DNA from: Chrysomallon squamiferum
Taxonomy: Eukaryota; Animalia; Mollusca
Assembly (NCBI GenBank): GCA_012295275.1
Contig: CM022678.1
Span: 3,782,001 to 3,846,000, forward strand
Length of the DNA: 64,000 nt
Reading direction: 5' to 3'
Below are positions 2,912 through 60,094 of the stretch, in pieces. The notes under the pieces are model-generated. The model was not told the DNA's origin and did not search any database. It saw nothing but the letters and a program-made list of their open reading frames with translations. The position numbers and the translations under genes are program-made. Numbering within the stretch: position 1 is the stretch's first letter; the number at the start of each line of letters is the position of its first letter.

Positions 2912-2942
<31 letters not shown>

Positions 2943-14061: not shown

Positions 14062-14900
14062 TAGAAACAAAATTATGAAAAGAATAACGATAGACAATCA
14101 ATTTTTTCTGTTTTCACCGATAACAATATTTCAGTGTGTTATATTTATAAACATATCCAAATACAAAAACGTATCACACCATTCAGTGCAGACGATTAAA
14201 TAAAATATTAGCGTACACAGTAACACAGATAGTCCTGTCAAGAACGAGTAAAGAAAGGAAGAAAACATCTGTGTTAGACAGTAATAGAAATATTTAGTGA
14301 CGTGTGAGTCCAAAGTTTATCCAAAGTGTATTGATTTACATCCATTGTCTGAATAATGTATATTCTTTTAAATATAATTAATTTATCTATTCTTATAGCA
14401 GAAAAATTAAGAGAGAAAATAAAAATAAAAAATAAAAATAATGACAATAATAATAAAACAAAATAAAATAAATACTATAATTACAACAGAAATAATCAAG
14501 TCAATGCAGTGATACATATGTTTGTAAAAACTACAGTCGGTTCTGTGTAGTTATCGATCTACGTGCAAGCTACCACAACCTAACACTCCTGGTTTCTATA
14601 TTTACGACTGATGTGTTCTGCGTTTTCAGTAACAGTCGGCGTTAAACAACATACAAGTCACGGTATATACAAAGAGTACGTATCTTTCTACCTACCTTCC
14701 TTCATACCGGTCAAACACATACACAAACACTCACACACACAAACACATACATACATACATACATACATAAATTCATATATATATATATATTATATATACA
14801 TATATATACACACACAAACACACACTCATTCTTATGCTCATTGTTCATGTAAATTGTTTCTTTTTCAGTTTCAGATGTTAAAACAAAACAAAAACTTGTA

Positions 14901-15929
14901 ATGACAGAAAGCTGTGATATCTCTTCTCCTTCAGTAAACGGCGTCACAGAAGCAGACAAAATAAAACTGCGGTATGCTACGTACAGAGGTTGGAATCGGA
15001 AAGAACTTGCTCTCAAGTTAGCTATATCCGGATTTCAGTATACTGGTAACGGTGACAAAGTGAAATGTGAAACTTGTGGCGTTCAAGTAGACAACTGGTT
15101 GCCGTCATACGACGCCATTGAAACACATCGCAAACACTCCCCGAACTGCTCTTATATTAATAAGTGGTTTGGCGGGAAAAACCAGACGACAGCTGAAGCT
15201 AGTAGAAACGATGTGGAGACGAAAATTCCTCCGAAATACCCATTATACGAGAGCTACCAAAACAGGCTAGACAGTTACTTTGGGTGGCCGCTGAAAAACG
15301 CACACCAAAGTCCCTCGTCCATGGTGGCAGAGGGTTTTTTCTACTTGGGATCTGCGGACAGAGCAAGATGTTTCCAGTGTGGTATCACTCTACGAGACTG
15401 GGACGAAGATGATTTTCCATTGGACGCCCACGTCACGTGGTCTCCCGACTGCCAGTTTGCTCAGCAGAGACTAGCCATGCGAGAAGTGTCACCTGATTGT
15501 GATGAGACAAAAGCAGGCTACAATAAAATGTCTAACGCAAATGAGGAAAAGAAAAACAAAGGACAGCATTCTGAAAGGAAAAGCGGAAACGCCTTTGAAA
15601 CAGCAAACACTGAAGCAGAAGCGACTTTAGATGCGCTTTTTAATGGAGGAAATAGAAACACGAACGAATCGTCTGTGGAAGTAAGAACTATCACCGGTGT
15701 ACCTAATGACGACACAGACACTGAAGGCGCAGTCGGGGGCATACGTAATGATGATGACGTCATGTCGGACGTGCGCAGTACGATGATAGACGCTGTTCTA
15801 GAGTTTGGATGCAGTATGGAAAGTGTAAGGAAGGCAATTCAGCTAGAGAGACAGAGAAACGGGAGAGATTTTCCTGATGCACAATCACTGTTTGCAGCAA
15901 TACTAGATATTGAAGAATCTAAGTGTTAA
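14901..15929 (+). CDS. IAP2 (BIR-BIR-UBA-like, no RING), 342 aa
   Basis: Intact ORF, close paralog of IAP1, preceded by acceptor tttttcagtttcag (5' UTR intron). Confidence 0.93.
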   Translation: MTESCDISSPSVNGVTEADKIKLRYATYRGWNRKELALKLAISGFQYTGNGDKVKCETCGVQVDNWLPSYDAIETHRKHSPNCSYINKWFGGKNQTTAEASRNDVETKIPPKYPLYESYQNRLDSYFGWPLKNAHQSPSSMVAEGFFYLGSADRARCFQCGITLRDWDEDDFPLDAHVTWSPDCQFAQQRLAMREVSPDCDETKAGYNKMSNANEEKKNKGQHSERKSGNAFETANTEAEATLDALFNGGNRNTNESSVEVRTITGVPNDDTDTEGAVGGIRNDDDVMSDVRSTMIDAVLEFGCSMESVRKAIQLERQRNGRDFPDAQSLFAAILDIEESKC

Positions 15930-16715: not shown

Positions 16716-18259
16716 TCAGTTTTCAATATATTGTGTGTGTGTGTCATTTAGATTTCACCCGTATTAAAAATAGTTCACCTTATAATTATATTAAAAGTAA
16801 CTGTGAAAATAATTCAGTGTTTCCTTGAGGTTTGTTAAATAGTTAAACTATATATATATATATTTGTTCTTCATCTACGAGGGAGAAATATGATCAGTTC
16901 TAGGTTGTAAATTGTGTGAACAAGTGGTCTGAGAGAAATGAGTGCTGTCAGTTGAAAGTAATGTTGAATCTGGTAGCGATATTGTTTATGGAAAAAGATT
17001 ACATATACCTTTCAAGATCATGGTTGTTTACCTCTGAAAATGAGCATAAACGTAAGGATCATAATCATTTGCTGCTTCTCCTTCCTGGTCTTTTCTTCTT
17101 TTTAGTATTACTTTGACTTTATTATTATTATTATTATTATCATTATTATAATAATTATTATTATTATAGGTAAAGTTTTTAAAGTTGGTTGTTCAAGAGA
17201 TACTGATAATGCGCTAACGTTATGCATTTGAGATAACTTACAGATAAAAAACAAAACACTTTAGATGCAGATAAAATAAACACCTGACAACGTGAGAACG
17301 TGACCATGTGTAGAACTAACATGTGACTCTTAGCTGTGTACAAAGTTCAAGGAGATAAAACAGTGGGCTTTTTATAAAATAATTCGAAGTTTTATCATTG
17401 AAATTGACTTACAAACACTGAATAACTCTTGCCACTTGTGGTTGTGATATTCCAGTTCTGCGACACCTAGGTGAATAAACTACAACAAACATCATCGCTG
17501 ACGATAAACACGCGTGTGATGAAAAGATCAGGTAATAAATAACTTTTCTTTCGTTTCGTAGAGCAGTAATAAACTGACGTAATTTGGAGCAATTTTATCA
17601 AATAGGTTTAGAAGGAAATTGATGAATAACAAGAAAATAGTGATGATAGAAGAAAAAAGTAAATAATAATAATAATAAAAATAAAGATAAGAATAAATAT
17701 AAATAAATACAACAGTGAAGTAAATAAACTGTAAAACAATTATTTGTAATTTGCTATAATTTGTTGAAACGACATTTTAAAGCTTGATTGCTTACTTCAT
17801 TTTGTCTAACTGTCATTGATGTTGTCGCTGGGTTTTTTTTTATTTCTTTTTCTTCTTCTTTATCGTCTTGTTCTTACTACTACTACTACTATTTGTATTA
17901 TTCATTGAATAATAAGTACTATTATTTTCCTTATTATAATTGCTGTTTGTTTTTAAGTAGTATTATTGCTATTATTGTCTGTGTTTTAATGTGTTATCTT
18001 AATGTTGAAAATATTAATGAGATTTAAGACATTCATTAACACATTTCTTTTCTTTCTTTTTTTTTAGCTGTGTGCTGCTTGTTTCTTTTAAATGTTGCTT
18101 TAAATTTGTGTGTAATTACCTTCGTTTTTCAGTTAATATTGTTGATTATCTATTGCATTTTATTTCAAGGTAAGAAGAAGGTGTTTCTCAGATGGAACAG
18201 TCATAGCCTTCTTGAATTAGACAGAACCCACAGATACAGCTATGAAGAGTTAATCTGTG

Positions 18260-19461
18260 ATGGCTGACAACTCTGTTGTTTCTCATATCAACATTAAACT
18301 GGAACACATAGCTTGTGAGGTCTGTTTAGAGTGTTTCGATGACAAGGAAAAGTTACCCAGAACACTTCCATGTGACCATTCCTTCTGCACACAGTGTCTG
18401 ACCTCTGTCTGGGACAGAGCACCAGACGGTGTGATCTGTCCGAAATGTCATCATCTTTATCCGGTCGAAGGGTCAATCGAGTCAAGCTTTGCAGTCAGTG
18501 GTATGCTGAAAGGCATCACAGAGTACATGCTACTGAAGAACAAGCCTGAACAAATCAGATGTCACGAATGTCCTGATAACCAGAACGCGGCAGTTCGCTG
18601 TGTCAACTGTCGAGAGTTTATGTGTTCGTCTTGTGCCAAATGTCACAAGAAATTTGCAGGCACAAAACACCACAAAACAGTTTCTCTTTCAGAGCTGGTC
18701 GAAATGCCAGCAGAAGAATTTTTCCAACCAAAAGACTCGTGTGATATTCACCCTCACATGTCCACTGACTTGTTCTGTGAAACCTGTACAACTCCTGTGT
18801 GTTCGTCGTGCACTCTAATTCACCATAAAGACCACAACATACACGACCTCAACGACGTCTACAGCAAGAAAAAACAACTGATTTCAACCATTTTGGCCGA
18901 TCTGCAGAAATCAACAACAGAGAACAAAATGTACAGACGAACTTTAAATTCAGACAAGACTAAACTAGATGAGATTTTAAAAACTCGTTTGGAAGAGATT
19001 GAGAAATCTGTCAACAAACTTGTGACACAAATAAAAAACGTGTCAGAACAGCAGAAAGAGGAAGTCAGATCAAATGTAGGGAGACAAAAAACGTTGAGAG
19101 ACAGAAAGTTAAACATGATTGGACAGCTTGAGGCTGACAGAGCTGATCACGTGACTGCCTGTGAACGGAAAATGCAATTCGCACGACAGTCTGAGTTTAT
19201 TAACATGTGTGGAGATCTTGAAAATGAAACAAATTCGCTGTTAGAAAATTCACATATAGTTGATATTTCATTAGAGGAAATTCCCCGAGATGACATATTT
19301 GTGTTGTTACAGAATCTGTTAGCGGAAAGACCTATAGCGTACAGCGGAACTAATTCTGAGGACGAAAAGCTAGGTATTTTTAAATACAGTCATCATTTAC
19401 AAAGATTAGCAGAAAATACGATGATTTAAATAGATAAGAGTTTTTTTCTTGATACGTGATC

Positions 19462-19553
<92 letters not shown>

Positions 19554-20760
19554 AATAAATGAAAAAGCAGACAGAAAAAGAGAAGGGGAGATAACTGCGA
19601 ATTTTCTGTTTGTATGTTACTATGAGTTAATTGTTTTCGTTATTTATACATAACTGTCTATATGACATATTTGCTATAGTAAATATTTATCATGATTATT
19701 AAACACTTTGTGTGTTGATTATTTCTGGTATGTACTTGTAGTATCAGACACGAAGAAGACGAGGAAAGATTCTGTTTGATGATCAACAAAGTCGGTTGGG
19801 CAAAGTTCTGTGTAAGTAAATTTTAATAATAAAAGAAGAGTTCGTAATCTAAAACTTCAGTAACCTATCACAGTGATGTTACACACAGACACACTCACAG
19901 ACTTACAGATGTATACTCACGCTATTTAATTGTGTTTGTCCTTCTGTGCCATTCCGTACCCGAATATTGTCTGAGTCTGATCAGACGTACACAAAACAGC
20001 GAATATACATTAATAAATGCGTCCGTACTGATGTTTGGTTTCTTTGTTGTTGTTGTGTGGGTTTTTTTCCTGTTCTTTTTTTTTTTTTTTAATTCATTTA
20101 CTTATTTATTTATTTCCTTTTGTTTCATTTCTATTTTATTTTATTTTACATGATTTATTTATTTATTTATCTGTAGTACCTAAACTGGACTTTTCCCTAA
20201 ATCTGAGTTCTGACACACCAACGTACTACGAGACAGAGTGTGTGATGAAAGAAAGACAGACGAAGCGAAAGACGACACAGCTTTGTCAAGTAGCAGAACT
20301 TGGTCTGTGTGTTAAAAACAATTCTCAGTACGGTTGGTTTATCAACAAAAACGTACACGTCTGGTACGTTCAAGTGTTGATAAACACAGATAACAGTTTT
20401 TATGTGAAGGTTTATTCTCGTACACATTTTGTGCATGAAAGTCGTGTCGCTGGTTACAGTGACAACTCTGTACTAAGACTGACCCTAGGCTGGTTACTGG
20501 ACACTAGAACCAAAACTTTACACGTCATTGACGTCAAACAGAGCAAACTGATTTACTCCATCCACGATGTTGACGTGTCGAAGCCGTTGACGCCAATGTT
20601 TTATAACAGCTGTTCTACATATTTCAACGTGACCGCAAAGGTGATTTCTGGCGAAAGTCTTTCATTGATTACTGATACTGTGAGACTGATATCCAACGTG
20701 ATGCAAGGAAAAAGAAGAAAAGAAGACGAAAGACAGTTGCAGTATTTAAAGAAGAAATAA
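18260..20760 (+). CDS. TRIM2: RING-Bbox-Bbox-coiled coil-SPRY-like, two coding exons (18260-19373, 20177-20760), ~565 aa
   Basis: Intact RING and B-boxes. Donor ctag|gtattt and acceptor ctgtag|ta are phase 1-compatible; 1114+584 nt = 566 codons including the stop. Confidence 0.87.
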
Positions 20761-22322: not shown

Positions 22323-23359
22323 TTAGTATCTGATTCCTGATTCTTCAATGTCTAGAACGGCTGCATACAACGACTCTGCATTAGGAAAAGTCTTCCCGTT
22401 TCTCTGTCTCTCTAGCTGAATTGCTTTCCTTACACTTTCTATGCTGCATCCAAACTCTAACACAGCGTCTATCATCGTACTGCGTACACCCCACATGACG
22501 TCATCATGGTTACGTATGCCCCCCTCTGCTCCGTCTGTATCTGTGTCACTATCACTTACGCCGGAGTCGGTTCTAACTTCCATACAGGATTGGTTTGTGT
22601 TTGTATTTCCTCCATTATAGGGCGCATATCCGATAGAACGTGCTTCGACCGTTTTTTGAAAGACGGTTTCGGTTTTCCTTTCAGAATGTTGTTCTTTGTT
22701 TTTCTTCTCCTCAGTTGGGTTAGACATTCTGTTGCTTTCTGTGTTTCTCTCGTCACTACTTGAAAACACGCCGCGTCTGGCTAGTTCTTGTCTCTGCCGA
22801 GCAAACTGGCAGTCGGGAGACCACGTGACATGGGCGTCCAGTGGAAAATCATCCTCGTCCCAGTCTCGTAGAGTGATACCACACTGGAAACATCTTGCTC
22901 TGTCCACAGATCCCAAGTAGAAAAAACCCTCTGCCGCCATGGACGGTGGACTTTGGTGTTCGTATTTTAGCGGCCACCCAAAGTAACTGTCTAGCCTATT
23001 CTGGTAGTTCTCGTATAACGGGTATTTCGGAGGAATTGTTGTCTCCACATTATTTCTACCAGTTTCCGATGTCGTCTGGTTTCTCCCGCCAAACCACTTA
23101 TTAATGTAATTGCAGTTCGGGGAGTGTTTACGATGTGTTTCAATGGCGTCGTATGACGGCAACCAGTTGTCTACTTGCACGCCACAAGTTTCACATTTCA
23201 CTTTGTCACCGTTACCAGTATACAGAAATCCGGCTATAGCTAGCTTGAGAGCAAGTCTTTTCCGATTCCAACCTCTGTATGTAGAAAACCGCCTTTTTAT
23301 TTTGTCTGCTTCTGTGACGCCGTTTACTGAAGGAAAGAGAAATCAATGGTTTCTGTCAT
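22323..23359 (-). pseudogene. IAP3 (BIR-BIR-UBA-like) with a 1-nt deletion near codon 9
   Basis: ATG at 23359 reads MTETIDFSFLQ*. Paralog IAP4 has tct tct cct tca, this copy has tct tt cct tca. The rest of the frame is open to 22323. Confidence 0.82.
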
Positions 23360-30741: not shown

Positions 30742-33700
30742 TCAGTATTCTGGAAATCTCCACATTTCACCGTTGCTATCTATGAAACTGAATCCACCTA
30801 TAATGCTTTTAATATTTGCATCAATACCTTTTTCAAGCAGCACTTTCAAAATTTCTACATTTGCACGTTGAGCAGCTAAATGTGAAAGAGACTTGTCGTC
30901 TTTGTCAGTTATATTAGGATCGGCTCCATGTTCCAATAAATACAAAACTGCATCATTCTGTCCATTCTCAAGAGCTGTAAACAGAGGAGACTTACCAGTA
31001 CTATTTTTAATATTTACATCAACACCTTCTCCAACCACTGCTGCCAAAACTTCTACATTTCCAAGTGCAGCTGCATGGTGCAAAACAGAATTGTTATCTT
31101 CGTCTCTTAAATTAGGATCTGCTCCCTGTTCCAATAAATACAAAATAACTTTATTCTGTCCACATTTAACAGCTCTAAGAAGAGGAGTTTCACACCGACT
31201 GTTTTTTATATTTACATCAAGATGTTTTTCAATCAGTGCTTTCACTATTTCTATATTTCCTTTTTCAGCTGCTAGGTGTAAAACAGAATTGTTATAGTTG
31301 TCTGTTAACTTAGGATCAGTTCCATGTTCCAGTAGATATAAAACTACTTTACATTTTTCATCATTCAGAGATGGATCAATTTCATCTTCATCATAAACAA
31401 CAGCTCTAAAAAGAGGAATTTCACCTTCAGTGTTTTTATTATTTACATCAACACCTTTTTCAATTAGTGCTGTTACAATTTCTAGATTTCCACATTCAGC
31501 TGCTAAATGTAAAACAGAATTTTTATCATTGTCTGTTAAATTAGGATCAGCTCCATGTTGTAGTAAATAAAAAATTACTTCACACTTTTCATCATTCAGA
31601 GATAGATCAAGCTCATCTTCATCATAATTAAGGGCTGTAAAAAGTGGAGTTTCACCACGACCGTTTTTTATATTTACATCAACACCTTTTTCAATCAGTG
31701 CTGTCACGGTTGCTATATTTCCTTCTTTAGCTGCTATGTGTAAAACAGAATTAACACACTTAGTTAAATAAGGATCAGCTCCATGTTCCACTAAATAGAA
31801 AACTACTTTACATTTTTCATCATTCAGAGATAGATCAAGTTCATCTTCATCATAACTAAGAGCCATAAAAAGAGCAGTTTCACCTCGACAGTTTTTAATA
31901 TTTACATCAATACCTTTTTCAATCAGTGCTGTCACAGTTTCTAAATTTCCTTCTTTAGCTGATAAGTGCAAAACAGAATGGCTAACATTGCCTATTAAAT
32001 TAGGATCACCTCCATGTTCCAGCAAATACAAAACTACTTTACATTTTTCATCAGTGAGAGATAGATCAAATTCCTCTTCATCATAATTAAGAGCTGTAAA
32101 AAGAGGAGTTTCATCTCCATTGTTTTTTATATTTACATCAACACCTTTTTCAATCACTGCTGTCACAATTTCTAGATTTCCATCTTTAGCTGCTACATGC
32201 AAAACAGAATTTTTATCATTGTCTGTTAAATTGGGATCAGCTCGATTTTCCAGTAAATACAAAACAAGTTTATTCTGTTTACACATAACACCTGTAAAAA
32301 GAGGAGTTTCACCTTTACTGTTTTTAATATTAACATCAGAATCTTTTTCAAAGAGTGCAGACACAATTTCTACATTTCCAAGTTTAGCTGCTAGATGTAA
32401 AACAGAATTCTTATCATTGTCTGTTAAATTAGGATCAGCACCATGTTCCATTAAACAGAAAACTACTTTATTCTGTTTATACTTAACACCAGTAAGAACA
32501 GGAGTTTCACCTTTGTTGTTTTTAATATTGACATTATCAGATTTTTTAATCACTGCTGTCACAATTTCTATATTTCCATGTTTAGCTGCTATGTGTAAAA
32601 CAGAATTGTTATGATTATCTGTTACATTAGGATCCACTCCACCTTCCAGTAAATACAACACTATTTTATTCTGTTTATACTTAACACCTGTAAGAAGAGG
32701 AGTTTCACCTTTATTGTTTTTAATATTTACATCAACGCCTTTTTTAATCAGTGCTGTGACAATTTCTGTATTTCCATGTTTAGCTGCTAGGTATAAAACA
32801 GAATTGTTATCATTGTCTGTTAAATTAGGATCAGATCCATGTTCCATTAAACAGAAAACTATTTTATTCTGTTTATACTTAACAGCTGTAAGAAGAGGAG
32901 TTTCACCTTTGCTGTTTTTAATATTTACATCAGCATTTTTTTCAATAAGTGCTTTCACAATTTCTAACTTTCTACCTTTAGCAGCTAGGTGTAAAACAGA
33001 ATTCTTAACTTCGTCTGTTAAATTAGGATCAGCTTTATGTTCCAGTAAACATAAAACTACTTTATTCTGTTCATGCATAATACTTGTAAAAAGAGGAGTT
33101 TCACCTTTATAGTTTTTTATATTTACATCAACACCTTTTTCAATCAGTGCTGTAACAGTCGGTCTATTTCCCAGTTTAGCTGCTACGTGTAAAACAGAAT
33201 TGTTAACACAGTTACATAAGTTAGGATCAGCGCCATGTTCTAATAAATACAAAACTACTTTACATTTTTCATTATTTTGAGACAGATCAATATGATCCTC
33301 ATCATAATTAAGAGCTGTAAAAAGGGGAGTTTCACCTCGACTGTTTTTTATATTTATATCAACACCTTTTTCAATCAGTGCGGTCACAGTTTCTATATTT
33401 CCTTCTTTAGCTGCTAAATGCAAAACAGAATTGCAAACGTTGTCTATTAAATCAGAATCACCTCCATGTTCCATTAAATACAAAACTACTTTACGTTTTT
33501 CATCAAACAGAGATAGATCAAATTCATCTTCACCATAATTAAAAGCTGCAAAAAGAGGAGTTTTACCTCTACAGTTTTTAATATTCACACCAAAACCATT
33601 TTCAATCAGTAGTGTCACAATTTCTGCATTTCCACATTCAGCCGCAAAGTGTAAAACAGAACTGTTATCACTGTCAGTTAAACTAGAGTCAGCTCCATGT

Positions 33701-36700
33701 TCCAGTAAATACATAACTACTTCATTGTTCTTACTATTTACAGCTCTCAAAAGAGCAGTTTCACCTCTACTGTTTTTAACATTTACATCAAAAACTTTCT
33801 CAATCAATACTGTCACAATTTCTATATTACCATTTTTAGCTACTAGATGTAAAACAGAATTGTTATTATTGTCTGTTAAATTAGGATCAGCTCCTAGTTC
33901 CAGTAAATAGAAAAAAACTTGACATTTTTCATCATCCAGAGTTGTATCAAATTCATCTTCTTCATAACTAACAGCTGTAAAAAGAGGAGTTTCACCTCTG
34001 CAGTTTCTAATATTTACATCTACACCTTTTCCAGTCAGTGCTGCCACAATTTCTTTATTTCCATGTTTAGCTGCTAGGTGTAAAACAGAATTGTTATCAT
34101 TGTCTGTCAAATTAGGATCAGCTCCATGTTCCAGTAAATACAAAACTACTTTCATCTCACAAGTGTCACATTTGTAAGAATTGCAGTATTTCATAGCTGC
34201 AAAAAGAGGAGTTTCATCTCGACTATTTTTAATATTTATATCAAAACCTTTTTGAATCAGTTCTGTCACAATTTTTATATTTCCACATTCAGCTGCTGAG
34301 TGTAAAAGAGAATTGTTATCACTGTCTGTTATATTAGAATCAGCTCCGTGTTCTAGCAGATAAAAAAACACTTTGTTCTGTTTATACTTAACAGCTTTAA
34401 AAAGAGGAGTTTCACTTCGACAGTTTTTCATATTTACATCAACACCTTTTTCAATCACTGCTGTCACAATTTCTATATTTCCATGTTTAGCTGCTAGGTG
34501 TAAAACAGAATTCTTATTATTGTCTGTTAAATTAGGATCAGCTCCATGTTCCAGTAAATAAAAAAATACTTCACATTTGTCATCATTCAGGTATGGATCA
34601 AATTCATCTTCATCATAATTAAGAGCTGTAAAAAGAGGAGTTTCACGTTGACTGTTTTTAATATTTATATCAACATTTTCTCTAACCAATGCAGCCACAA
34701 TTTCTTTATATCCATGTTCAGCTGCTATATGTAAAACAGAATTGTTATGATTGTCTGTTAAATTAGGATCAGCTCCATGTTTCAGTAAATACAAAACCAC
34801 TTGACATATTTCATCATTTAGAGATAAATCAAATTCCCCTTCATCGTAACTAACAGCTGTAAAAAGAGGAGTTTCACCTCCACTGTTTTTTATATTTACA
34901 TCAACACCACCTTCAATCAGTGCGGTGACAATTTCTTTATATCCATGTTTAGCTGCTATATGTAAAACAGAATTGTTATCATTGTCTGTTAAATTAGGAT
35001 CAGCTCCATGTTCCAGTAAATAGAAAACTACTTTGATTTGTTTAGACTGCACAGCTGTAAAAAGAGGAGTTTCACCTATATCGTTTTCAATGTTTAGATC
35101 AACAGCTTTTTCAGTCAGTGCTGTCACAATTTCTGTATTTCCACATTCAGCTGCTAGATGTAAAACAGAATTGTTATCATTGTCTGTTAAATGAGGATCA
35201 GCTTCATGTTCCAGTAAATAAAATACTATTTTGCTTCTAAGAAAGTTGATATCTTCATGTTTGTCAAAATCATACCTATAATAATTCAAAGTTGTAAAAA
35301 GAGGAGTTCCACCGTCACTGTCTCTAATATTTACATCAAAACCTTTCTGAATCAGTGATGCAACAATTTCTATATATCCTTTAGCAGCTGCTATGTGTAA
35401 AACAGATGTGTTATCATTGTCTGTTAAATAAGGATCAGCTCCATGTTCCAGTAAATATAAAACTACTTTATTCTGTTTACACTTAACAGCTTTAAAAAGA
35501 GGAGTTTCACCTTTATAGTTTTTTATATTTACATCAACACCTTTTTCAATCAGTGCTGTAACAGTCGGTCTATTTCCCAGTTTAGCTGCTACGTGTAAAA
35601 CAGAATTGTTAACACAGTTACATAAGTTAGGATCAGCGCCATGTTCTAATAAATACAAAACTACTTTACATTTTTCATTATTTTGAGACAGATCAATATG
35701 ATCCTCATCATAATTAAGAGCTGTAAAAAGGGGAGTTTCACCTCGACTGTTTTTTATATTTATATCAACACCTTTTTCAATCAGTGCTGTAACAGTCGGT
35801 CTATTTCCCAGTTTAGCTGCTACGTGTAAAACAGAATTGTTAACACAGTTACATAAGTTAGGATCAGCGCCATGTTCTAATAAATACAAAACTACTTTAC
35901 ATTTTTCATTATTTTGAGACAGATCAATATGATCCTCATCATAATTAAGAGCTATAAATAGGGGAGTTTCACCTCGACTGTTTTTTTTATTTATATCAAC
36001 ACCTTTTTCAATCAGTGCTGTCACAACTTCTATATTTCCTTGTTTTGCAGCTAGATGTAAAACAGAATTTTTATCATTGTCTGTTAAATTAAGATCGGCT
36101 CCATGTTCCAGAAAATAGAAAATTATTTTGTTCATAAAAGAGTCATTGCGAAAATTATATTTGATATAATTCATAGCTGTAAAAAGAGGAGTTTCACTTC
36201 GATTGTTTTTAATATTTACATCAACACCTTTTTCAATCAGTGCTGTCACAATTTCTATCTTTTCTGCATCAGTTGCTAAGTGTAAAACAGAATTGTTGTC
36301 ATTTTCTGTTAAATTAGGATCAGCTCCATGTTCCAGTAAATAAAGCACTACTTTGTACTGATCATTCTCAACAGCTTTAAAAAGAGGAGTTTCACCTCGA
36401 CTGTTTTTAATATTTATATCAAAATCTTTTCCAATCAGTGAAGTCACAATTTCTATATTTCCTTGTTCAGCTGCTAAGTGTAAAACAGAACTGTCGATAC
36501 TGTCTGTTAATTTAGGATCAGCTCCATGATCTATTAAATACAAAACTACTTTTGTATTACGATGTCTAAAAATGTCGTATTTGCAGTAACTCATAGCTGT
36601 AAAAACAGGAGTTTTACCTCCACTGTTTTTAATATTTACATCAAAATATTTTTCAATCAGTGCTGTTACAATTTCTATATTTCCATGTTTAGCTGCTTGG

Positions 36701-39700
36701 TGTAATAGAGAATTGCTATCATTGTCAGTTAAATTGGGATCAGCTCCGTGTTCTAGTAAATAGAAAACTACTTTGTTCTTACAACAGTACATATCTCGAT
36801 CTTTGAGAACATGATAATGATAGTAAGTCGTAGCTCTAAACAGAGGAGTTTCACCTCGACAGTTTCTAATATTAACATCAAGACCTTTCTCAATCAGTGC
36901 TGTCACAATTTCTATATTTCCATTTTCAGCTGCTAGGTGTAAAACAGAATTATTTTTTTTGTCTGTTAAATTAGGATCAGATCCATGTTCAAGTAAATAA
37001 AAAGGTACTTTGTTCGTAAATCCATAACAAAGAATACCAAAGTAATTCAGGGCTGTAAAAAGAGGAGTTTCCCCTCGAATGTTTTTACTATTAACATCAA
37101 AACCTTTTTCAGTCAGTGCTGTCACAAGTTCTATATTTCCCCATTTAGCTGCTAGGTGTAAAACAGAATTGTTTTCTTTGTCTGTTAAATTAGGATCAGC
37201 TCCATGTTCAAGTAAATTAAAAGCTAGTTTGTTGATATGAGAGTACGTACCTGGATGTATGAAAAACTGTTGATTGAAGTAGTCCAGAGCTCTAAAAAGA
37301 GGAGTTTCTCCTTGGCTGTTTTTAATATTGACTTCAAAACATTTTTCCGTCAGTGCTGTCACAATTTCTGTATTTCCATGTTCAGCTGCTATATGTAAAG
37401 CAGAATTGTTATAGTTGTCTGTTAAATGAGGATCAGCTCCATGTTCCAGTAAAAATAAAACTACTTTGCTCTCTCCAACCTGAACAGCTGTATGAAGAGG
37501 AGATAGACCTTCACTGTTTTTAATATTTATATCCAAATCATTGTCAATCAGTGATGTCACAATTTCTATATTTCCTTCTTCAGCTGCTAAGTGTAAAACA
37601 GAATTATTATCATTGTCTGTTAAATTAGGATCAGCTCCATGTTCTACTAAATACAAAACTATCTTGTTCTGTTTATAAGTAACAGCTGTAAACAGAGGAG
37701 TTTCACCTCGATTATTTTTAATATTTACATCAAAATCTTTTTCAATGAGTGATGTCACAATTTCTATATTTCCATGTTTAGCTGCTAGATGTAAAACATA
37801 ATTGCTATCATTATTTATCAAATTAGGATCAGCTCCATGTTCCAGTAAATATAAAACTACTTTGTCCTGTTTATGCTTAACAGCTGTAAAAAGAGGAGTT
37901 TCACCTCTACTGTTTTTAATATTTACTTCCAGACCTTTTTCAATGAGTACTGTCACAATTTCTACATTTTGATGTTGAGCTGCTAAATGAAAAACAGAAT
38001 TTTTATCATTATCTGCTAAATTAGGATCAGCTCCATGTTGTAGTAAATATAAAGCTATTTCTGGTCTGTTGTTGAACATAGACTGAAAAAGAGGAGTTTC
38101 CCCTTTAGTGTTAATTGCATTTATTTCAACATCCTTTTTTATTACTTCTTTCACCACGTCTATGTCAATCTGAGATGCTATGTGCAATGCTGAATTCTTT
38201 TGTTTATCTGCTATGTTAGTATCAGCACCATTTTTCAGTAACAACAAAGCTACTTCCTTTTTGTGTGTCACTGCTTTTACAGCTTCATGAAGTGGAGTTT
38301 CTCCCTCACTGTTTACAGCATTAACATCAGCTTTTCTCTTTATCAGTGATTTTATCATATCTAAGTCACCACGCTGAACTGAAATGTGGAGGGGTGTGTC
38401 TGAAGGCAACAATTTCAAACTAGTTTTGTCAGCAAACAACACTTTTGATTTAATTTCCTCTTCAGAGAACTGAATCAATTTCTGGTTAACAGCTACATTC
38501 AGATTAGGATCAGCTCCTTTATCAAGAAGACACTGAACAACATCTGCACTGTTAAAGATCAATGCCACTTTCAGTACTTGACTTTTCTTCCAGCTGTTCT
38601 CATCTGTGTAATTACATCTCTGCTCAATGAGAAAATTCACTGTATCACAACATCCCCAAATTGCTGCTGCTAAAAGTACTTTATCTCTGTTCTCATCATT
38701 TAAACAATCAGGTTTCAGTCTTACTATTTCTTTTATAACACTTGAAGTACTCTGACCAGCAGCAATGACAGCAATGTCTTTAATTTTGTTTATTATATCA
38801 ATGGTAACCAGTTTCTTAAAAGCATGGCTTATGTCAGCAACTTTAATAGTATCTGAGTTTTCCAAACACATGTTACTTGATTGAAAATTAACTTTTCTGT
38901 GGAACCTAAGCAATAAAAGTTTTACATTTTCTTCCTTGATTTCACTGTTGTGTTTCTCATTGTTTATCATGTCAGCCAAGAGGCAGGCAATGTTCATGTT
39001 ACCTGAACAAATACAAATATGTAACAAGTGTGAACACAGATTCAATTTTACCACTTTTTTATACTGTAACAGTTCTCTGAGTATGGTAGCACTGTCTGTT
39101 TTTGAGCAAGCAGCTGCACTGAATGTATCAAATGTTGGAATAACACCTGATTTTAGCAACATTCTCACAACAGGTTCATCACCAAAGAAACAAGAAATAT
39201 CCAAAAGTTCTTTTTTCTGATATGCTAATTTCATTTTACACAGATTTGATGTGAAAAATCTTGACAATGTTCTTAGTCCACCAACAACGCACATACTTGC
39301 AACAGATGATGAATACATCAAACTTCCTTTATCTTCCAAATACCTCATGCAACTTGAATGAAACTTTGATTGATTGTCAAGAAGACATAAAATATTGCTA
39401 AATATTTCATTAGGACTGTTTACATATACAGATGATATATAAAAGTATTTGTTTGTATATATTCTCTGATGCAGTATTTCAGACAACCTACCATAAAAGT
39501 GTTTTTCCTCTATGAGGTACTTTACAAACTGTTCGTCTTTCAGTGATGGATGTGAAATAATTTCTGCGGAAGTGTCTGATGCCAGCAAGTCTGAAAATCT
39601 GCGAGCAAGAACATCAAAGCAGTCAGGTTTCACAGTCATTGTAATGTGACTTTTGTTAGACACTCCAGGCGTCACAACATATTCTAACAACATGGAGACA

Positions 39701-40726
39701 GGACACACTTCTAGCAACTCTGCTGCTTTATTTGGAAACTTTGATGAAAACAGCAGAAACAAAGAGTCAAACAGTGACTGATGAATAAATGTGTATTTAT
39801 TGTCACAACGCTTCAAATACGTACCACACATTACATCAGCTGTTTCCTTTATATCTGTAAGATCAGTGTTTTTCAGACCTCTACAGACTCGCTCTAGCAA
39901 TTTTACTAATTTCATTATGTCACTGTCAGTGTCATTTTCAAATGGGTCCAGTGAATCAATGCTGAGACTGCCTTGTTGGAACAAGATCAGCAGTAGAACC
40001 AGGTAGTTGATCTGTGAAGATTTGTCATTTTTCAAATATTCCAATTGGTGTCTGAGATATTCTACAGGATTCTTAAAAAACTTAACTCCTCTTTTTTGTG
40101 CATCACTTGAATTAACATAATACAAACACACCTGAGGAAATCCTAACTCTGTACCTGAACACTTAATGACAGTTATTGCATGATTTTTCTGCATAGTAAC
40201 TTTCTTTTGTTTGAGATATTTGTTTAGAATTTCTTTCTTTTCATCATAATCCAGACAACAGTCATCACTCTGCAGATCAAGAACATGCTTCTCATTAAAC
40301 AGACTAAATTCCTTCAAACTAATTTCACTTTCTGAAAATATTTGTTTTCTTAAAGTAATAATACATTTCAAAGAACCATCCTGAACAAGCATCCATAGCT
40401 TAGGAAATTTCAGTTGCCATGAGTCTATAAAATCTGTAACAAGATTAGTCTTACCAAAAATGTCATCAATGAGAACAATACATTTGTTATTTTCAGATAG
40501 AGAGATGTCATTGAATTCATTGTGATGCGTCAGCAAGTAAGATTCTCTTTTCTCTTCTTTTTCTATCTGTGTCATCATGCTCAAAGCTACAGTTGTCTTT
40601 CCTGAACCTGGAATTCCTACTACAATCACAACACCATGCTTCTTCAAAAGTTCAACACCTCTTTCTTCTGCTCTTGTTTTAACATAGACACTCTGTCAGC
40701 TGAATTTAACATCAATCTGGTAGACT
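30742..40726 (-). CDS. Giant NLR-like protein main exon: STAND NTPase (nSTAND3-type) + about 70 ankyrin repeats (>3300 aa)
   Basis: Walker A GIPGSGKTT, Walker B CIVLIDDIFG, GFPQ motif and winged-helix-like YTFIHQSLFD, then 34 counted ankyrin doublets (GETPLF.A...YLLEHGADP / NSVLHLAA..GN.EIV..LIEKG). One uninterrupted ~10-kb exon with acceptor ttattcag at 40726. Confidence 0.93.
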
Positions 40727-41017: not shown

Positions 41018-42069
41018 CTTTGATAATGGATGCTCTTCCATCAGTCTTTGCTGAAATAATATAAAAAATATAACAAGTAAATTTATGTTACTAGTGGTGA
41101 GTAAAAGAGAATGATTAAAGTGATCTGCAACTTATTCTTACTACTGATACTAGCTATTTATTGTTATCTTTGATATATTATTATTATTATTATTGTGGTT
41201 GTTGTTACCTGTATTATATTTCAGTATTTAAAGCTGATTATAATGACAAGAATATAGTCTAGTTTAATTCATGTCGAGTTATATTAATAGTTTAAGTACA
41301 ATATCTAGATCAGTTTAACACACATACACTGTGTCTCCGTGTGTAATGCATGTCTTCATATATGCATGTGTTCTGTGTAAGTGTTAAGTGGGTATGTATG
41401 CACACATGCATGTATGTATTGGTGTCTGTCGATGGGCAGGTTTCTACGTTGTTCAGGTTACACTGTCTTACAAAAAAGTACTAATGACTTCTGTGATATG
41501 TATTCTGTTATTTATTAAACAGCTAGACACAAGAAAACTTTCAGTTTTTAACTTACTGATTTTAATAACTTGATCTCCAAACACAACATTCCTGTTATTA
41601 GACACAGCCTGGTATTTCTGAACTGTGTTGATATTTACATTCTGTTGTACCACTTGTTGTGTTCTTCCAGCTGAGTAAAAGAAATTATTTAAATTCACAA
41701 TTTATATAAATAATTTCTAAAAGTAAAACCATTTTTATCTACATGTAGATACGTGATAGTGTACAGTATTAATACAATCTGTCCTGAATATAATGATAAA
41801 ATTATAAGATTTAAAAAAGGTATTTAATAGTGTTATCTATGTATGTTCAAAATAATCAAATAATAATAGAGGTGTATTTTCTAACACAAAGCAGACCAAA
41901 ATCTTTGAATTGTTAATTATGAATATAAAATGAAAAAAGTGTCACTTTTCAAACCCTAACAAGAATAGAAATACTTCATTATTAAAGGTATTAATGATTT
42001 TGTCATACTCTCTGAGGAAGAAACGTCTGTGGCATCAGATGAAATTTCTGAATTCTCTTCGTCATCCAT
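41018..42069 (-). CDS. Three small 5' coding exons of the STAND-ankyrin gene (42069-42009, 41670-41557, 41050-41018)
   Basis: Canonical AG/GT sites, all phase 1, joining without stops: MDDEENSEISSDATDVSSSE-T-GRTQQVVQQNVNINTVQKYQAVSNNRNVVFGDQVIKI-T-KTDGRASIIK-E. Confidence 0.65.
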
Positions 42070-43053
42070 GATTGCTGATCTGTAAAAAATAATTTAATGA
42101 TTTTTTTAATTACATGACAGATTTTTTATTCACTATTTTATAGTGTCAGACATGTGGTTAAAAAAATTCAGATAACAAAAAAAAAAAAGAACCCAGAAGA
42201 AACCCACTGCCACCATTTGATGGTCTACTCTTTCTCATTAATAACAAGTGATATTTCATTTACACCTACCCACAGACTGCATTCTCAACTTTTGTTCTAT
42301 AAATATATTCCTGAAATATTTTATGAAATAACAGAATCTAAATAGGTTTTAATAAATGTCCTAATTTTGTAAATAGTGACGTTAGATTGTTATATAAAAA
42401 AACAGTCTTGAAAACATAATAATTACCTCATTGCTAATGTGAAAACTTAATACTGTTGTAATTAATTACTATAACATCATATTAGAATCAATTCATTCAA
42501 AACAGTTTATAACAGATAACTGATCATTATCACAAAGCATGCACAAGATGCTTTCTAAACTGCAGTACTATATTATGTCTATAAAATAATTGTCACAATA
42601 GTCATACATTGATATACTTTAGTTTTATTGTAAATATAATCATTATTAGAATAGTTAATAGTTATATTAATTTATAACTTAGTTTTGTAGTAGATATAAT
42701 TATCACAATAGCTATACTATCATTTACATTGGTTTTGTAATCAATTATTACAATAGTTATATCTTAGTTTTGTAGTAAATGTACTACCAATCAGAATAAT
42801 TATACAAAGTAACAATTACATTAGTTATTCCTAGTTAATTCTAGTCTTTTGACTAGCTTTGGCAACTGAAGTTTTATCAGTCTTCTGCTGTACATTGTAC
42901 ACTTATGATATTAAATTAAATTTTAATATTTTTTACTGACAATCACATTTATTATTTGAAATGTGTACATGATGTGTGTTTATATGTGTGTTTCTGCTTA
43001 CATCTGTGTGTATATGTAGGTAATTTGAACAAATAGTACGTTTACTTACTTAC

Positions 43054-43530
43054 AATTCAGTTTAACCCATCTTTAGAGTTTAGCTGTTGTATGTTAAACC
43101 AGTTGTTTGTCACTGACCATACAACTTTTCTGACCTGTCAACAGAACAATACAGAACTTACATACTGATTTAACTTTCTTCTTAAATTAATATTGTCAAG
43201 TAATACATTTTCCTTTCTTTATTATTATGAAAATATTTACTCAAAATATTATATAAAAAAGAAAAAAGAAAAAAGAAGAATAAACTGCAAAAAAACCCCA
43301 CAAAAACTAAAAAACTTACTAAAATTAAAATCATTCCATTATAATTGTTGTTTTTCAAAGTATCAAACATTATTAATTGACTCTGTTATAATACTGACTG
43401 CAGAATCACACATGTACATCGATACATTACTCTCAAAACATTTACTTACAATTCAGTTTATCCCATCTTTAGATTTTAGCTGTTGTATGCTAAACCAGTT
43501 GTCTGTCACTGACCATACAACTCTTCTGTC
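43054..43530 (-). other. Two duplicated 81-nt exons (43530-43450, 43134-43054), probably 5' UTR of the STAND-ankyrin gene
   Basis: Near-identical blocks, each bounded by cag| and |gtaagt; stops in all frames. Confidence 0.55.
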
Positions 43531-49745: not shown

Positions 49746-50040
49746 TTACGTTAATGTTGCATGAAGGGGTGTTTTACATGCACTGTTTAAAATATTTATA
49801 GCAGCACCTTTTTCAGTCAGTACTGTCACAATTTCTATTTTTCCATGTTGTCCTGCTGCTTGGTGTAAAACAGAATTAATATCACAGGCTCTTGAATTAA
49901 GATCAGCTCCATGTTCCAGAAAATAAAAAGCTACGTCTCTATAATCACAATTCAGTGCCACAGTAAGAGCTGTTTCACATAGATAATTTATAGGATTTAC
50001 ACCAGCCCCTTTCTTAATTAGTGCTGCTACAATTTCAATA
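49746..50040 (-). pseudogene. Decayed ankyrin fragment paralogous to the STAND-ankyrin gene
   Basis: FYFLEHGADLN...NSVLHQAA...KIEIVTVLTEKG has the same doublet consensus; upstream IEIVAALIKKG is disrupted. Confidence 0.8.
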
Positions 50041-50611
50041 ATTCAATGTTAACCCTTCAGCAGGGAATTCACCTTCCACAACTTTCATTGTTGATTCTGA
50101 AATGTGGAAATAGTACTGATTTTGAATCTATTATAAACTTCTTTGAATGACGTTTGTTTGACTAGATGAAAATCTAAATCAGTCCAGGAAAATACTCTGT
50201 GTGTAGTCGTTTCAAAGTGTTAATTGAAAAGTAACTGTAATACTCATGACAAAAAATAATCAATCAATAACTAGTGTGTGTAATACTGTTAAGCAAACTA
50301 TATGTTTAAATTATGCTTGTTTAGTATATATGTATGTATGTCTGAAAGTTAATTAGATGAATAGAAATATTGTAACTGTATTAGTTCATAATTGTTTTTA
50401 AACGAAAACACAAATAAAAAGCCGAGATTCGGATTGCAGAGTCCGGGATCGCACAAAACATTTTAGATTTTAAATTTTAAATTTTAAATAAAGAATGAAC
50501 AGGCACTACTAAAAACAGTACAGTTTACGTTTTGCCAGTCTGTAGTAGAAATCGAAGTAAAACCGGAATCTTGTCAACTGATCGTGTGTGTGTGTTTTAA
50601 TTGTTAACACT

Positions 50612-51652
50612 TTAACACTTTACTGATTCTTCAATGTCCAGTATTGCTGCAAACAACGACTCTGCATTAGGAAAATCCTTCCCGTTTCTCTGTCTCTCTA
50701 ACTCTATTGCCTTCCTTACACTTTCTATGCTGCATCCAAACTCTAACACAGCGTCTATCATCGTACTTCGCACACCCGACATGACGTCATCGTCGTTGCG
50801 CACACCCGAAATGACGTCATCATCGTTGCGAACACCCGACATGTCGTCATCATCGTTACCAACTCCCCCGACTGCGCCTTCTGTGTCTGTGACGTTATTA
50901 GATACACCGGTGATAGTTCTCACTTCCACAGAGGATTCGTTCCTGTTTGTATTTCCTCCATCACAGACCGTATCGGGTTTCCTTTCAGAATGTTGTTCTT
51001 TGTTTTTCTTTATCTCAGTTCTATTCAATTCCGGTTTTGTCTCGTCACTATTTGACGACACTCCGCGTCTGGGTAGTTCTTGTCTTTGTCGAGCAAACTG
51101 GCAGTCGGGAGACCATGTGACATGGGCTTCCAGTGGAAAATCATCCTCGTCCCAGTCTCGTAGAGTGATACCACACTGGAAACATCTTGCTCTGTCCGCA
51201 GATCCCAAGTAGAAAAAACCCTCTGCCGCCATGGACGGTGGACTTTGGTGTGCGTATTTTAGAGGCCACCCAAAGTAACTGTCTAGCCTCTTCTGGTAGT
51301 TCTCGTATGACGGGTATTTCGGAGGAATTGTTGTCTCCACATTATTTCTACTAGCTTCCGATGTCGTCTGGTTTTTCCCGCCAAACCACTTATTAATGTA
51401 AGAGCAGTTCGGGGAGCGTTTGCGATGTGTTTCAATGGCGTCGTATGACGGCAACCAGTTGTCTACTTGCAGGCTACAAGTTTCACATTTCACTTTGTCA
51501 CAGATACCAGTATACAGAAATCCAGATATAGCTAGCTGGAGAGCAAGTTCTTTCCGATTCCAACCTCTGTACGTAGCATACCGCAGTTTTATTTTGTCTG
51601 CTTCTGTGACGATGTTTACTGAAGGAGAAGAGAAATCACTGGCTTCTGCCAT
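50612..51652 (-). CDS. IAP4 (BIR-BIR-UBA-like, no RING), 346 aa
   Basis: Start MAEASD inferred from paralogs, both BIR Zn motifs intact, acceptor tttccagtttcag upstream, candidate first-exon donor near 52851. Confidence 0.92.
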   Translation of the reverse strand: MAEASDFSSPSVNIVTEADKIKLRYATYRGWNRKELALQLAISGFLYTGICDKVKCETCSLQVDNWLPSYDAIETHRKRSPNCSYINKWFGGKNQTTSEASRNNVETTIPPKYPSYENYQKRLDSYFGWPLKYAHQSPPSMAAEGFFYLGSADRARCFQCGITLRDWDEDDFPLEAHVTWSPDCQFARQRQELPRRGVSSNSDETKPELNRTEIKKNKEQHSERKPDTVCDGGNTNRNESSVEVRTITGVSNNVTDTEGAVGGVGNDDDDMSGVRNDDDVISGVRNDDDVMSGVRSTMIDAVLEFGCSIESVRKAIELERQRNGKDFPNAESLFAAILDIEESVKC

Positions 51653-53242
51653 CACAGTTTTTTGTTTGGTTTTAATATCTGAAACTGGAAATGAAACAGT
51701 ATACATAAACAACTAGCATAACTAGCGAAATATGTATGTTTGTATGTATATATCTATGTGTATGTATGTATCTATGTGTATGTAAGTGCATAATTGATTT
51801 ATTTATTTATTTACTTATATATTTAAAAAATAATGAAAACAAATTATATATATATATATATATCAATCTCACCTCATTGGTTATGCAGGGTTTTTAATTA
51901 GGTGTTGGGCGTGGCTGGAAAAACAGGGTACAGACAGTTGCTGATATATTTTTTGTCAATAAAATGTCATTTTATGTTATGGTATGTTTGTATAATTTGT
52001 TTAGTGGGAATCTTGGATAAATGAATCAATAAAGTAAGTTAACAAAAATAATTCTCAGGCAGCTATATCATACAATATTTTTATTTATTTTATTTTATTT
52101 TTTTTAAATAAAGCTTCGGTGATCAAAATGTTAAGAGTTGTGGAGTGGTGATAAAAAGCCAAAAAAAAAAAAAAAATTACTAAAAACATAATTCTGTCTA
52201 AATCAACAATAATATTTGAATATTTATCCTAAAATTATATTGTAATTAGTATTTTACACCTGTACCTGAAACACATTATATCAGTCTATGCGTTTGGTGT
52301 TCATAATTACAATCAGAAGTAACTACCTCCTTAAACAAACAATTACAGAACCTCAGAAACTTTAATTAAGTGAAATTTTGTAATTAACAAACCTTTGAAG
52401 TTGTGTCTTTAGAAATTCTATGTTTTATAGCTTGGTTTTAATCAACAAAAAATTCTGTTATATTTTATTAATAAAATAATAAATAAAATTTTATTAATTA
52501 AAAAAACAATAATTCTGATCAGTTGTCCTATTTTTCATTGCCCTGTGTTTTGGAAAGACATGTGACCCTAACTGTGAATGCAACTGTAAACTAATCTACA
52601 TAAATAATAGTGGCAGTATTTAGAGAGGGTGATCATCTCCTCGTCTATCTAACTACGACCAGATATGTCAGTAACATGACACTGAGCACAGATATATGTT
52701 AGAAAAAAAAAAATATATATATATATATATATAAAGGATTATTTTTTTAAAAAGAATAAACAAACATCGGTTTAAAATGATATCAGCAGATAATTTCAAT
52801 AATATCGTGTTAAACAAATATAAAGAAAACAATAAAATTATGCTCACTTACTGAAAAAGAAAATGGCTGCCGCTGTACACTACTCGTTGACTGTATTTTT
52901 AGACACGCGTAACTTCTGTCATGCGTACAGTTAGGTTACGAAACCACACGAACGAATAAATATTTCCTTCTTTCTTTTTTTCTCTTTTTTTTTCTCCCAC
53001 TTCTGTGCAATACAGAAATAATTATATTAACCAGTTCAGCATGAGAAACTTTTAATTGTCAAAAGACAAACTCACAGGTTTTATTTCATTATAGGTAATG
53101 CTAAAGACGCGTTCAAACTGGTCGATTGTGTGTAATGATATTTTATTACTGCAGTAATGCAAGCAAAGAAATATGTTGGCATATTTCCAATTTATATGAA
53201 TGGCTGTACGTGTTCATATGTATATATTTGCATGTATGTAGG

Positions 53243-58772: not shown

Positions 58773-59822
58773 AGATGTATGATTTAGTAAATGGGTGTTC
58801 ATCTGTAAGTCTGATATTAAAATGTTTATTTGTTAGATGTACGATTTAGTAACTGGGTGTTCATCTGTAAGTTTGATATTAAAATGTTTATTTGTTAGAT
58901 GTACGATTTAGTAACTGGGTGTTCATCTGTAAGTTTGATATTAAAATATTTATTTGTTAGATGTACGATTTAGTAACTGGGTGTTCATCTGTAAGTTTGA
59001 CATTAAAATGTTTCTTTGTTAGATGTACGATTTAGTAACTGGGTGTTCATCTGTGAGTTTGACATTAAAATGTTTATTTGTTAGATGTACGATTTAGTAA
59101 CTGGGTGTTCATCTGTGAGTTTGACATTAAAATGTTTATTTGTTAGATGTACGATTTAGTAACTGGGTGTTCATCTGTGAGTTTGACATTAAAATGTTTA
59201 TTTGTTAGATGTACGATTTAGTAACTGGGTGTTCATCTGTGAGTTTGATATTAAAATGTTTATTAGTTAGATGTACGATTTAGTAACTGGGTGTTCATCT
59301 GTAAGTTTGATATTAAAATGTTTATTAGTTAGATGTATGATTTAGTAACTGGGTGTTCATCTGTAAGTTTGACATTAAAATATTTATTTGTTAGATGCAT
59401 GAATCTGTATGTTTGATATTAAAATGTTTATTTGTTAGATTTCTGATTTAGTGACTGGGTGTTCATCTGTAAGTTTGATATTAAAATGTTTATTTGTTAG
59501 ATGCATGAATCTGTATGTTTGATATTAAAATGTTTATTTGTTAGATTTCTGATTTAGTGACTGGGTGTTCATCTGTAAGTTTGATATTAAAATGTTTATT
59601 TGTTAGATGCATGAATCTGTATGTTTGATATTAAAATGTTTATTTGTTAGATGTCTGATTTAGTAACTGGGTGTTCATCTGTAAGTTTGATATTAAAATG
59701 TTTATTTGTTAGATGTCTGATTTAGTAACTGGGTGTTCATCTGTAAGTTTGATATTAAAATGTTATTTGTTAGATGTCTGATTTAGTAACTGGGTGTTTA
59801 TCTGTATGTTTGATATTAAAAT
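58773..59822 (+). repeat. 62-bp tandem repeat (15 long units + three 44-bp variants) spanning the EXOSC6 exon 6 donor
   Basis: Units start at 58773, 58835, 58897...59331, then alternate 44/62 bp from 59393. Unit = ag atgtacgatttagtaactgggtgttcatct gtaagtttgatattaaaatgtttatttgtt. Confidence 0.97.
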
Positions 59823-60094
59823 GCTTAGTTTTTCATTTATTTACATATTCACTGTAATTACAGAAAACTGCACTAATTTAGTTCATGTTTTCTAAGGAAA
59901 TGACAGAAATATTTTACTGGTGAAAGGGTTGAAGATTTCTTTAGGTTGTTGTTGATTATATTTAGTCAGATTTCTAAACAGATATTTTACTGGTGAAAGG
60001 GTTGAAGATGTCTGTAGGTTGCTGTTGATTATATTTAGTCTGATTTTCAAAATAAATAACAGAAATATTTCACTGCAGGATGAGTTGAAAATGT

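Follow-up and report, generated by a model that had tools for sequence, protein, structure and literature searches.

Receptors that signal through a short N-terminal amyloid motif are best described in fungi and bacteria. The fungal amyloid NLRs (NWD2/HET-S, and PNT1/HELLP with the PP motif) and the bacterial BASS NLRs are reported to join a short N-terminal motif rich in Q, N, G, V and I to a STAND NTPase of the NACHT or NB-ARC type and to a repeat sensor, and their effector is encoded by a linked gene (PMC7889193; bioRxiv 2020.01.06.895854). While such receptors are established in fungi and bacteria, the animal precedent that we found is a prediction for the amphioxus NACHT protein BF82280, a RHIM-NACHT-repeat protein whose architecture is given in the text and legend of PMC4262963. 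In BF82280 a profile-detectable motif of RHIM type occupies the place where a death fold is normally found, and this slot argument was applied to amphioxus RHIMs by Kajava et al. 2014 (PMC4262963). Molluscs go unmentioned in the main text of that paper. Mammalian RHIMs (RIPK1, RIPK3, ZBP1, TRIF) reside in kinases or nucleic-acid sensors. The cryptic RHIM (cRHIM) of arthropods, as described for PGRP-LC/LE, Imd and shrimp SRB2, has a VxxG core in which only the G is fixed, and it sits in yet another receptor class. Bacterial Avs5 (Sir2-nSTAND3-TPR) is described as having an effector-NTPase-repeat layout in which an enzymatic effector is fused to the nSTAND3 NTPase and followed by TPR, Sel1 or PPR repeats. 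Further sources used for comparison were PMC12119088, PMC10268257, PMC13506858, PMC9444067, PMC9835746, PMC8195603, PMC12452177, PMC3879445 and bioRxiv 2026.02.19.706818 and 2025.07.08.663546.

Here we describe a gene of the mollusc Chrysomallon squamiferum that shares parts of each of these designs. The gene lies in a 64-kb window, meaning the whole stretch of DNA that was analyzed, and encodes in order an acidic leader, a Q/N/V-rich exon, a 33-nt exon, an nSTAND3 NTPase (PF20720) and ~61 ankyrin repeats. Like the fungal and bacterial amyloid NLRs, it has a short N-terminal motif of Q/N/G/V/I-rich type, a STAND NTPase, a repeat sensor and no folded effector domain, although the copy in the window is frameshifted. 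It differs from them in having an nSTAND3 rather than a NACHT or NB-ARC domain and in its animal host, and by analogy it may work as they do. Like BF82280, it combines, in an animal, a STAND architecture with a RHIM-type motif where a death fold usually sits, but it is molluscan and nSTAND3-based, and its motif is divergent and lacks Q. The NTPase family and overall layout are those of Avs5, with a short motif in place of the fused enzyme and ankyrin repeats in place of TPR, Sel1 or PPR. We lean, by a modest margin, towards the interpretation that the small exon supplies a mollusc nSTAND3-ankyrin receptor with an N-terminal RHIM/cRHIM-like motif, which probably acts as an amyloid seed that signals to a separate effector. 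The features of the gene are as follows.

43450-43529, minus strand: 5' non-coding exon, far end approximate (RNA joint 43132-43448, cut +2, in four of four runs).
43054-43134, minus strand: 5' UTR exon with a TAA, read by eye, in frame with the start codon (joint 42079-43054, CT..AC, in one of four runs).
42009-42079, minus strand: coding exon 1, with the ATG at 42069 and a 20-residue acidic Ser/Asp/Glu leader, ending in phase 1 (RNA joints).
41557-41670, minus strand: coding exon 2, the symmetric 114-nt Q/N/V-rich exon (splice sites and RNA-contig joints).
41558-41605, minus strand: RHIM/cRHIM-like core and next strand, exon residues V22 to I37, with VVFG at 28-31 (family-profile match, paralog contig, AlphaFold strands).
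41018-41050, minus strand: coding exon 3, a 33-nt phase 1-1 linker (joint 41050-41557 in three of four runs; acceptor and donor).
40693-40726, minus strand: first part of coding exon 4, encoding the pre-NTPase helix and frameshifted by one base at ~40694-40691 (homolog alignment; extra base in contigs).
40210-40686, minus strand: nSTAND3 NTPase with intact Walker A (GxxGxGKT) and Walker B (hhhhDD) (PF20720, E 9e-26, ORF residues 4-162).
30742-40695, minus strand: stop-free ORF of 3317 codons holding the NTPase, a Pfam-less region and ankyrin repeats (ORF scan, Pfam).

The sequence-only reading had proposed a three-exon gene with the Q/N/V-rich exon placed between the acidic leader and the NTPase. 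That order holds, yet the 33-nt exon at 41018-41050, which it overlooked, intervenes, and the frame is broken as assembled. The three-exon model is therefore rejected because exon 3 is spliced in RNA contigs; there are four coding exons, and all three introns between them are in phase 1. The acidic leader of exon 1 has no Pfam match. The terminal coding exon spans ~10 kb, and behind the NTPase its ORF encodes a region of ~500 residues with no Pfam match above cut-off and the ~61 ankyrin repeats, which form diverged tandem arrays. The NTPase scores 91 bits as nSTAND3 and 23.5 bits as NACHT, under the 26.7 cut-off of the latter. The nSTAND3 and ankyrin matches bear out the proposal of a STAND-ankyrin receptor. 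Its lack of a death fold is likewise confirmed: Pfam finds none, and an upstream death fold is rejected since the in-frame TAA in the spliced UTR exon precedes the ATG at 42069. That UTR exon also carries short upstream ORFs. The two 5' exons are tandem near-duplicates (93.7% identical), and some RNA contigs have joints that go back at these exons, which suggests more copies in paralogs. In the ankyrin array, tandem units of 198 nt and 231 nt with 75-85% identity fill 30800-38100 within a single exon, a pattern that suggests repeat shuffling of the ankyrin sensor as in fungal NLRs.

Coding exon 2 is well defined on the minus strand. It is in phase 1-1, has an AG acceptor behind a pyrimidine tract and a GTAAGT donor, and encodes a peptide of 37 residues that starts two bases into the exon; the plus strand over the same interval is interrupted by stops. 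RNA evidence was taken from contigs assembled at 90% likeness from four runs of one study, without a DNA control, and the runs cover the region with a share of words of 0.15-0.30. Joints 41670-42009 and 41050-41557, which flank the exon, were each found in contigs from three of the four runs, both with CT..AC ends. The sequence-only reading had looked to RNA junctions to support its exons; these two are present, and the joint between exons 3 and 4 is absent among the RNA joints listed, a list that leaves aside 24 further ones. The contigs differ from the window at many letters, which shows that the expressed copies comprise several paralogs or alleles. The description of a symmetric 114-nt exon encoding this peptide is thus correct, as is its Q/N/V richness: N+Q amounts to 35% and V+I to 30%, and when the window is tiled in six frames into stop-free 37-mers, none of the 981 reaches both values.

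The passage from exon 3 to the NTPase is where the gene, as assembled, fails. With the natural acceptor (40727|40726) in use, translation meets a stop at 40646-40644 without entering the NTPase ORF, and the copy as assembled would yield ~96 residues and no NTPase domain. The ten codons past the acceptor at 40726 align with the pre-NTPase helix of homologs, 7 out of 10 of which align best with a single residue opposite 2 nt of the window. RNA contigs have one extra base there, at 40691 in runs X1 and X2 and at 40694 in X4, and a full codon at the site is also seen by eye in loose ends of paralog contigs from X3 and X4. The homolog alignment and the extra base in contigs together indicate that the window copy is one base short. 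An alternative in-frame acceptor was rejected, since the upstream in-frame AGs meet a stop and the later ones have poor tracts or cut the domain. That no good acceptor brings the exon into frame with the NTPase is the main point in favor of the first rival explanation, by which the window holds a frameshifted allele or young pseudogene whose product, an NTPase-less peptide of ~96 residues comprising leader and motif, is inert or a motif-signalling decoy. An isolated ankyrin fragment at 49746-50042 (minus strand), ~50% identical to repeats of the large ORF, with no NTPase nearby and possibly a decayed paralog, would fit this explanation too, as it shows that decayed pieces are present in the vicinity. 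The 9.95-kb ORF is nevertheless stop-free, and the contigs with the extra base have depths of 15 (X1) and 12 (X2) versus 7-12 for window-identical contigs. In X1 and X2, moreover, the extra base duplicates an existing base, and the miscounting of a doubled base is a typical long-read error. We regard an allele or pseudogene without receptor function as rather unlikely, and it would be compatible with an amyloid-seed explanation for the family. An assembly error, or one allele, is more likely than a loss of the family mechanism, because the 10-kb ORF is intact and the depths are near those of the window-identical contigs.

A phmmer search returned 1156 representatives at E<=0.001, of which the best 150 were used; among the matches listed, the closest proteins are those of the vent snail Gigantopelta aegis (44-50% identity), followed by those of abalones and bivalves. 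A further protein search gave 97 matches, mostly generic ankyrins, with one new family member. In the NTPase tree the gene groups with G. aegis proteins (support 100/99), and a second tree groups it with 9 of them (99 SH-like); the motif labels on that second tree were assigned by eye and do not constitute a test. By its PF20720 match, Walker A and B motifs, ankyrin C-terminus and tree position, the gene is a member of a molluscan nSTAND3-ankyrin STAND family. A homolog segment used as query in the ESM Atlas matched nSTAND3 and AAA-type clusters that are bacterial or unassigned; the Atlas returned nothing for the exon or for motif pieces, and a metagenome scan gave one weak locus, which is unrelated.

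The region before the NTPase is variable across this family. The family set comprised 160 proteins, 154 of them anchored; 78 have at least 40 residues before the NTPase, and removal of 3 near-duplicates left 75 N-termini. When 16 selected members were scanned with Pfam, the slot before nSTAND3 held, above cut-off, a Death domain (P0164), a CARD (P0227), a caspase (P0125) and a HEPN_DZIP3 domain (P0171), and below cut-off a DED (P0246) and a HEPN domain (P0173). No such domain was found at E<=1e-4 in the motif-bearing members P0181, P0177, P0199, P0160, P0195 and P0163 or in P0143. The idea of an N-terminal signalling module is supported to this extent: RHIM-like motifs before the NTPase recur in relatives, and the slot is otherwise that of Death, DED, CARD, caspase or HEPN domains. 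P0125, a caspase-nSTAND3-ankyrin fusion, lies within a clade of abalone-type members, hinting at a caspase as the downstream effector of motif-only members. The abalone homolog P0006 has an acidic leader followed by a motif, like the window gene, and its LHFG tetrad is the cRHIM core of Drosophila Imd. A second type of N-terminal motif, seen in P0009, P0127, P0137 and P0141, consists of GMxGG and then A-x-N with a hydrophobic strand ending in G. P0009 and P0141 are abalone proteins, and the GMxGG-type motif resembles microbial amyloid motifs in composition.

Measured against the canonical RHIM, (V/I)-Q-(V/I/L/C)-G, the VVFG tetrad of the exon is not a strict match. It has V in the position of Q, which is present in all 37 vertebrate RIPK1/3 tetrad variants listed in the source consulted, where F also occurs naturally at tetrad position 3 and VQFG is a working natural tetrad. 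Also missing from the exon, in contrast to mammalian RHIMs, are a G/E ahead of the core and an N three residues behind it. The PP signature as described in PMC7885112, G-phi-Q-phi-G, is absent from the core as well. Pfam RHIM and PP models matched neither the exon nor 13 other motif pieces nor 6 more N-terminal pieces; the exon gave 0 families at E<=10, in a search whose HMMER filters drop weak matches and missed VQFG and IQIG pieces as well. Neither the peptide nor the motif profile matched anything in a PDB sequence search. The suggestion that the exon is an imperfect RHIM hence finds no support as a claim of RHIM proper, in that Q is absent and the proposed scoring with the Pfam RHIM model gives no match. 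The VxxG core of the cRHIM is present, and the tetrads LHFG of Drosophila Imd and VHIG of shrimp IMD, as reported, are close to VVFG and to VHVG of the homolog P0118. With four letters and a single fixed one, this definition is too permissive for diagnosis: it is found in 37% of shuffles of the peptide and in 70 of the 981 six-frame 37-mers.

Under the second rival explanation the exon would take no part in signalling and be a disordered, low-complexity linker that owes its RHIM look to its Q/N/V composition, while the receptor signals through another surface or within a sensor-helper pair. The lack of any profile-library match speaks for it, as do the 76 of 154 anchored homologs with fewer than 40 residues before the NTPase, many of which may be truncated gene models. 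Family comparisons point the other way, and the spacing agrees in part. The exon shares the phi-x-N-x3-phi-x-phi-G spacing of the mammalian RHIM, a pattern present in 4 of 6 RIP1/RIP3 rows in the figure consulted, where the core of HET-s repeat 2 is VLIG, without Q (Kajava Fig. S1, PMC4262963). Mutagenesis of RIPK1/3 is reported to show that nucleation of amyloid is driven by aliphatic positions -11, -9, -3 and -1 from the core G. Counted by eye from that G, the exon fits at -9, -7 (N), -3 and -1 and does not fit at -11, and is thus hydrophobic at 3 of the 4 nucleating positions.

A nine-position RHIM template was built from the published RIP1/RIP3 rows and tetrad variants. At least 6 of 9 positions were matched by 5 of 75 homolog N-termini, where shuffling gives 0.9 on average (p=0.003), and by 0 of 75 same-length NTPase controls; the matching set includes VQFG (P0119) and VEIG (P0181). 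The excess is not significant at 5 of 9 (11/75 versus 7.5, p=0.12) or at 7 of 9 (1/75, p=0.07). The exon itself matches 5 of 9 positions (own-shuffle p=0.058), and this weak single-sequence statistic is again in keeping with a linker. A family profile was then seeded with five template-fitting N-termini, three from G. aegis and two from unionid mussels, the exon being left out of the choice. It matches the exon in register at VVFG with composition held fixed (own-shuffle p=0.0024), and scores as high as that of the exon are reached by 2 of 979 six-frame and 2 of 234 family 37-mers. The match has p=0.0021 with the G. aegis seeds alone and p=0.044 with the bivalve seeds alone. P0118, with VHVG-D at the same spacing, ranks second among non-seeds, and a K five residues past the G, noted by eye, is common to the exon, P0118, P0119, P0005 and P0181. 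A looser skeleton, the pattern of which was set post hoc, occurs in 5 of 7 N-termini of the G. aegis clade versus 0.6 expected, and outside the clade in 11 of 68 versus 7.1 expected (p=0.086). Pairwise matches between the exon and homolog N-termini are at chance (2/75 at p<=0.02), the best being the close relative P0118, at the motif. An unsupervised motif search of the family recovered the HEPN domain and the GMxGG-type motif and missed the motif class of the exon, as a linker would predict. The fit of a paralog RNA contig (X3, depth 53) to exon 2 is confined to ~41558-41606, which is the motif and the next strand, while other contigs fit up to 41621.

Taken together, the independently chosen profile, the template excess in the family, the retention of the motif half by a paralog contig and a slot shared with death-fold and caspase domains argue against a linker, which we judge unlikely. 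Conservation of the motif in homologs is therefore upheld at the level of template and profile, with strong divergence and statistics of moderate size. Judged from these sequence comparisons, the motif is not a canonical RHIM, and it keeps most of the RHIM spacing and the cRHIM VxxG core. The combined tests support, with moderate strength, a real but divergent RHIM-like motif.

Because the motif stands in the N-terminal slot before the NTPase, and relatives carry motifs where others have a death fold or caspase, these receptors are likely to signal by seeding amyloid. By analogy with STAND biology and with the amyloid NLRs of fungi and bacteria, the ankyrin array would bind a pathogen or damage ligand, whereupon the NTPase would oligomerize. 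The clustered N-terminal motifs could then stack into a short cross-beta seed, and this seed would template a motif-bearing adaptor, leading to NF-kB activation or cell death. Candidate adaptors in the literature are mollusc RIPK1 and CARD-RHIM proteins: the RIPK1 of zebra mussel is reported to have a RHIM, and a CARD-RHIM protein is described as common to bivalves and a bivalve iridovirus. The third rival explanation, that the motif is a beta-strand module acting only within the receptor (stabilizing the oligomer, in autoinhibition, or as a docking strand) without templating an effector, would account for the absence of any gene with the same motif in the 64-kb window by tblastn, unlike the linked fungal and bacterial pairs, for the high variability of the motif between close relatives, some of which lack the G, and for the short hairpin (strands 27-30 and 33-36, mean pLDDT 64) that AlphaFold gives for the single peptide, a low-confidence prediction uninformative on amyloid, but we consider it improbable, given that animal RHIM partners need not be genomically linked, that RIPK1-RHIM and CARD-RHIM proteins exist in molluscs, and that enrichment in Q, N, V, I and G is the signature of signalling amyloids. 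The last point follows bioRxiv 2020.01.06.895854.

The surroundings of the gene were also annotated, as follows.

2653-4002, plus strand: IAP ORF, two BIRs (Pfam).
14853-15929, plus strand: IAP ORF, two BIRs (Pfam).
22323-23342, minus strand: IAP ORF, two BIRs (Pfam).
50612-51712, minus strand: IAP ORF, two BIRs (Pfam).
6936-9418, plus strand: TRIM-like gene (RING, two B-boxes, coiled coil); the ORF behind it reaches no Pfam cut-off.
18254-20760, plus strand: TRIM-like gene of the same structure; here too the ORF behind it reaches no Pfam cut-off.

All four IAP ORFs have nothing but the two BIRs above the Pfam cut-off, share 85-91% DNA identity and are recently duplicated; each ends in a short C-terminal helical tail, which we take to be UBA-like and which has no Pfam match. 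IAPs and TRIM-like genes follow each other in alternation, forming a duplicated IAP-TRIM unit, and the cluster resembles a tandem array of immune genes. RING patterns in the six frames of the window occur solely in the two TRIM-like genes and in none of the IAPs, by a scan that could miss a split RING exon. The proposed link of the receptor to cIAP and Diap2 through its neighbors is not supported, because these IAPs show no RING, and a functional connection to ligases of that type is rejected on the BIR-only structure of all four ORFs. A minisatellite of ~17 copies of a 62-bp unit lies at 58773-59827.

On balance, the gene is likely to encode a molluscan STAND receptor with an amyloid motif as its signalling element, a variation on a fungal and bacterial design for which amphioxus already offers a predicted case. 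In the literature searched, outside of which lie most subscription journals, we found no report of a RHIM-like motif on nSTAND3 or molluscan receptors and no paper that pairs the terms 'RHIM' and 'nSTAND3'. Such motifs may have been overlooked because they fall below Pfam detection and because a symmetric exon as tiny as the one in this gene is easily dropped by gene models. In gastropods and bivalves the nSTAND3 clade, to which bacterial Avs5 also belongs, seems to treat RHIM-like motifs and Death, CARD, DED, caspase and HEPN domains as exchangeable modules. It is conceivable, and we propose it tentatively, that a large and fast-evolving molluscan family of Avs5-type (nSTAND3) ankyrin receptors signals by amyloid templating in divergent motif dialects, each with its own adaptor; these dialects would comprise the RHIM-like VxFG, VHVG and VEIG forms, G-less forms, and the abalone GMxGG type. 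If true, such a family would give animals their first extensive counterpart to the amyloid NLR signalosomes of fungi and bacteria, and would bear on whether RHIM is the sole signalling amyloid in animals, and on the immunity of farmed abalone, scallops and mussels and of symbiotic vent snails.
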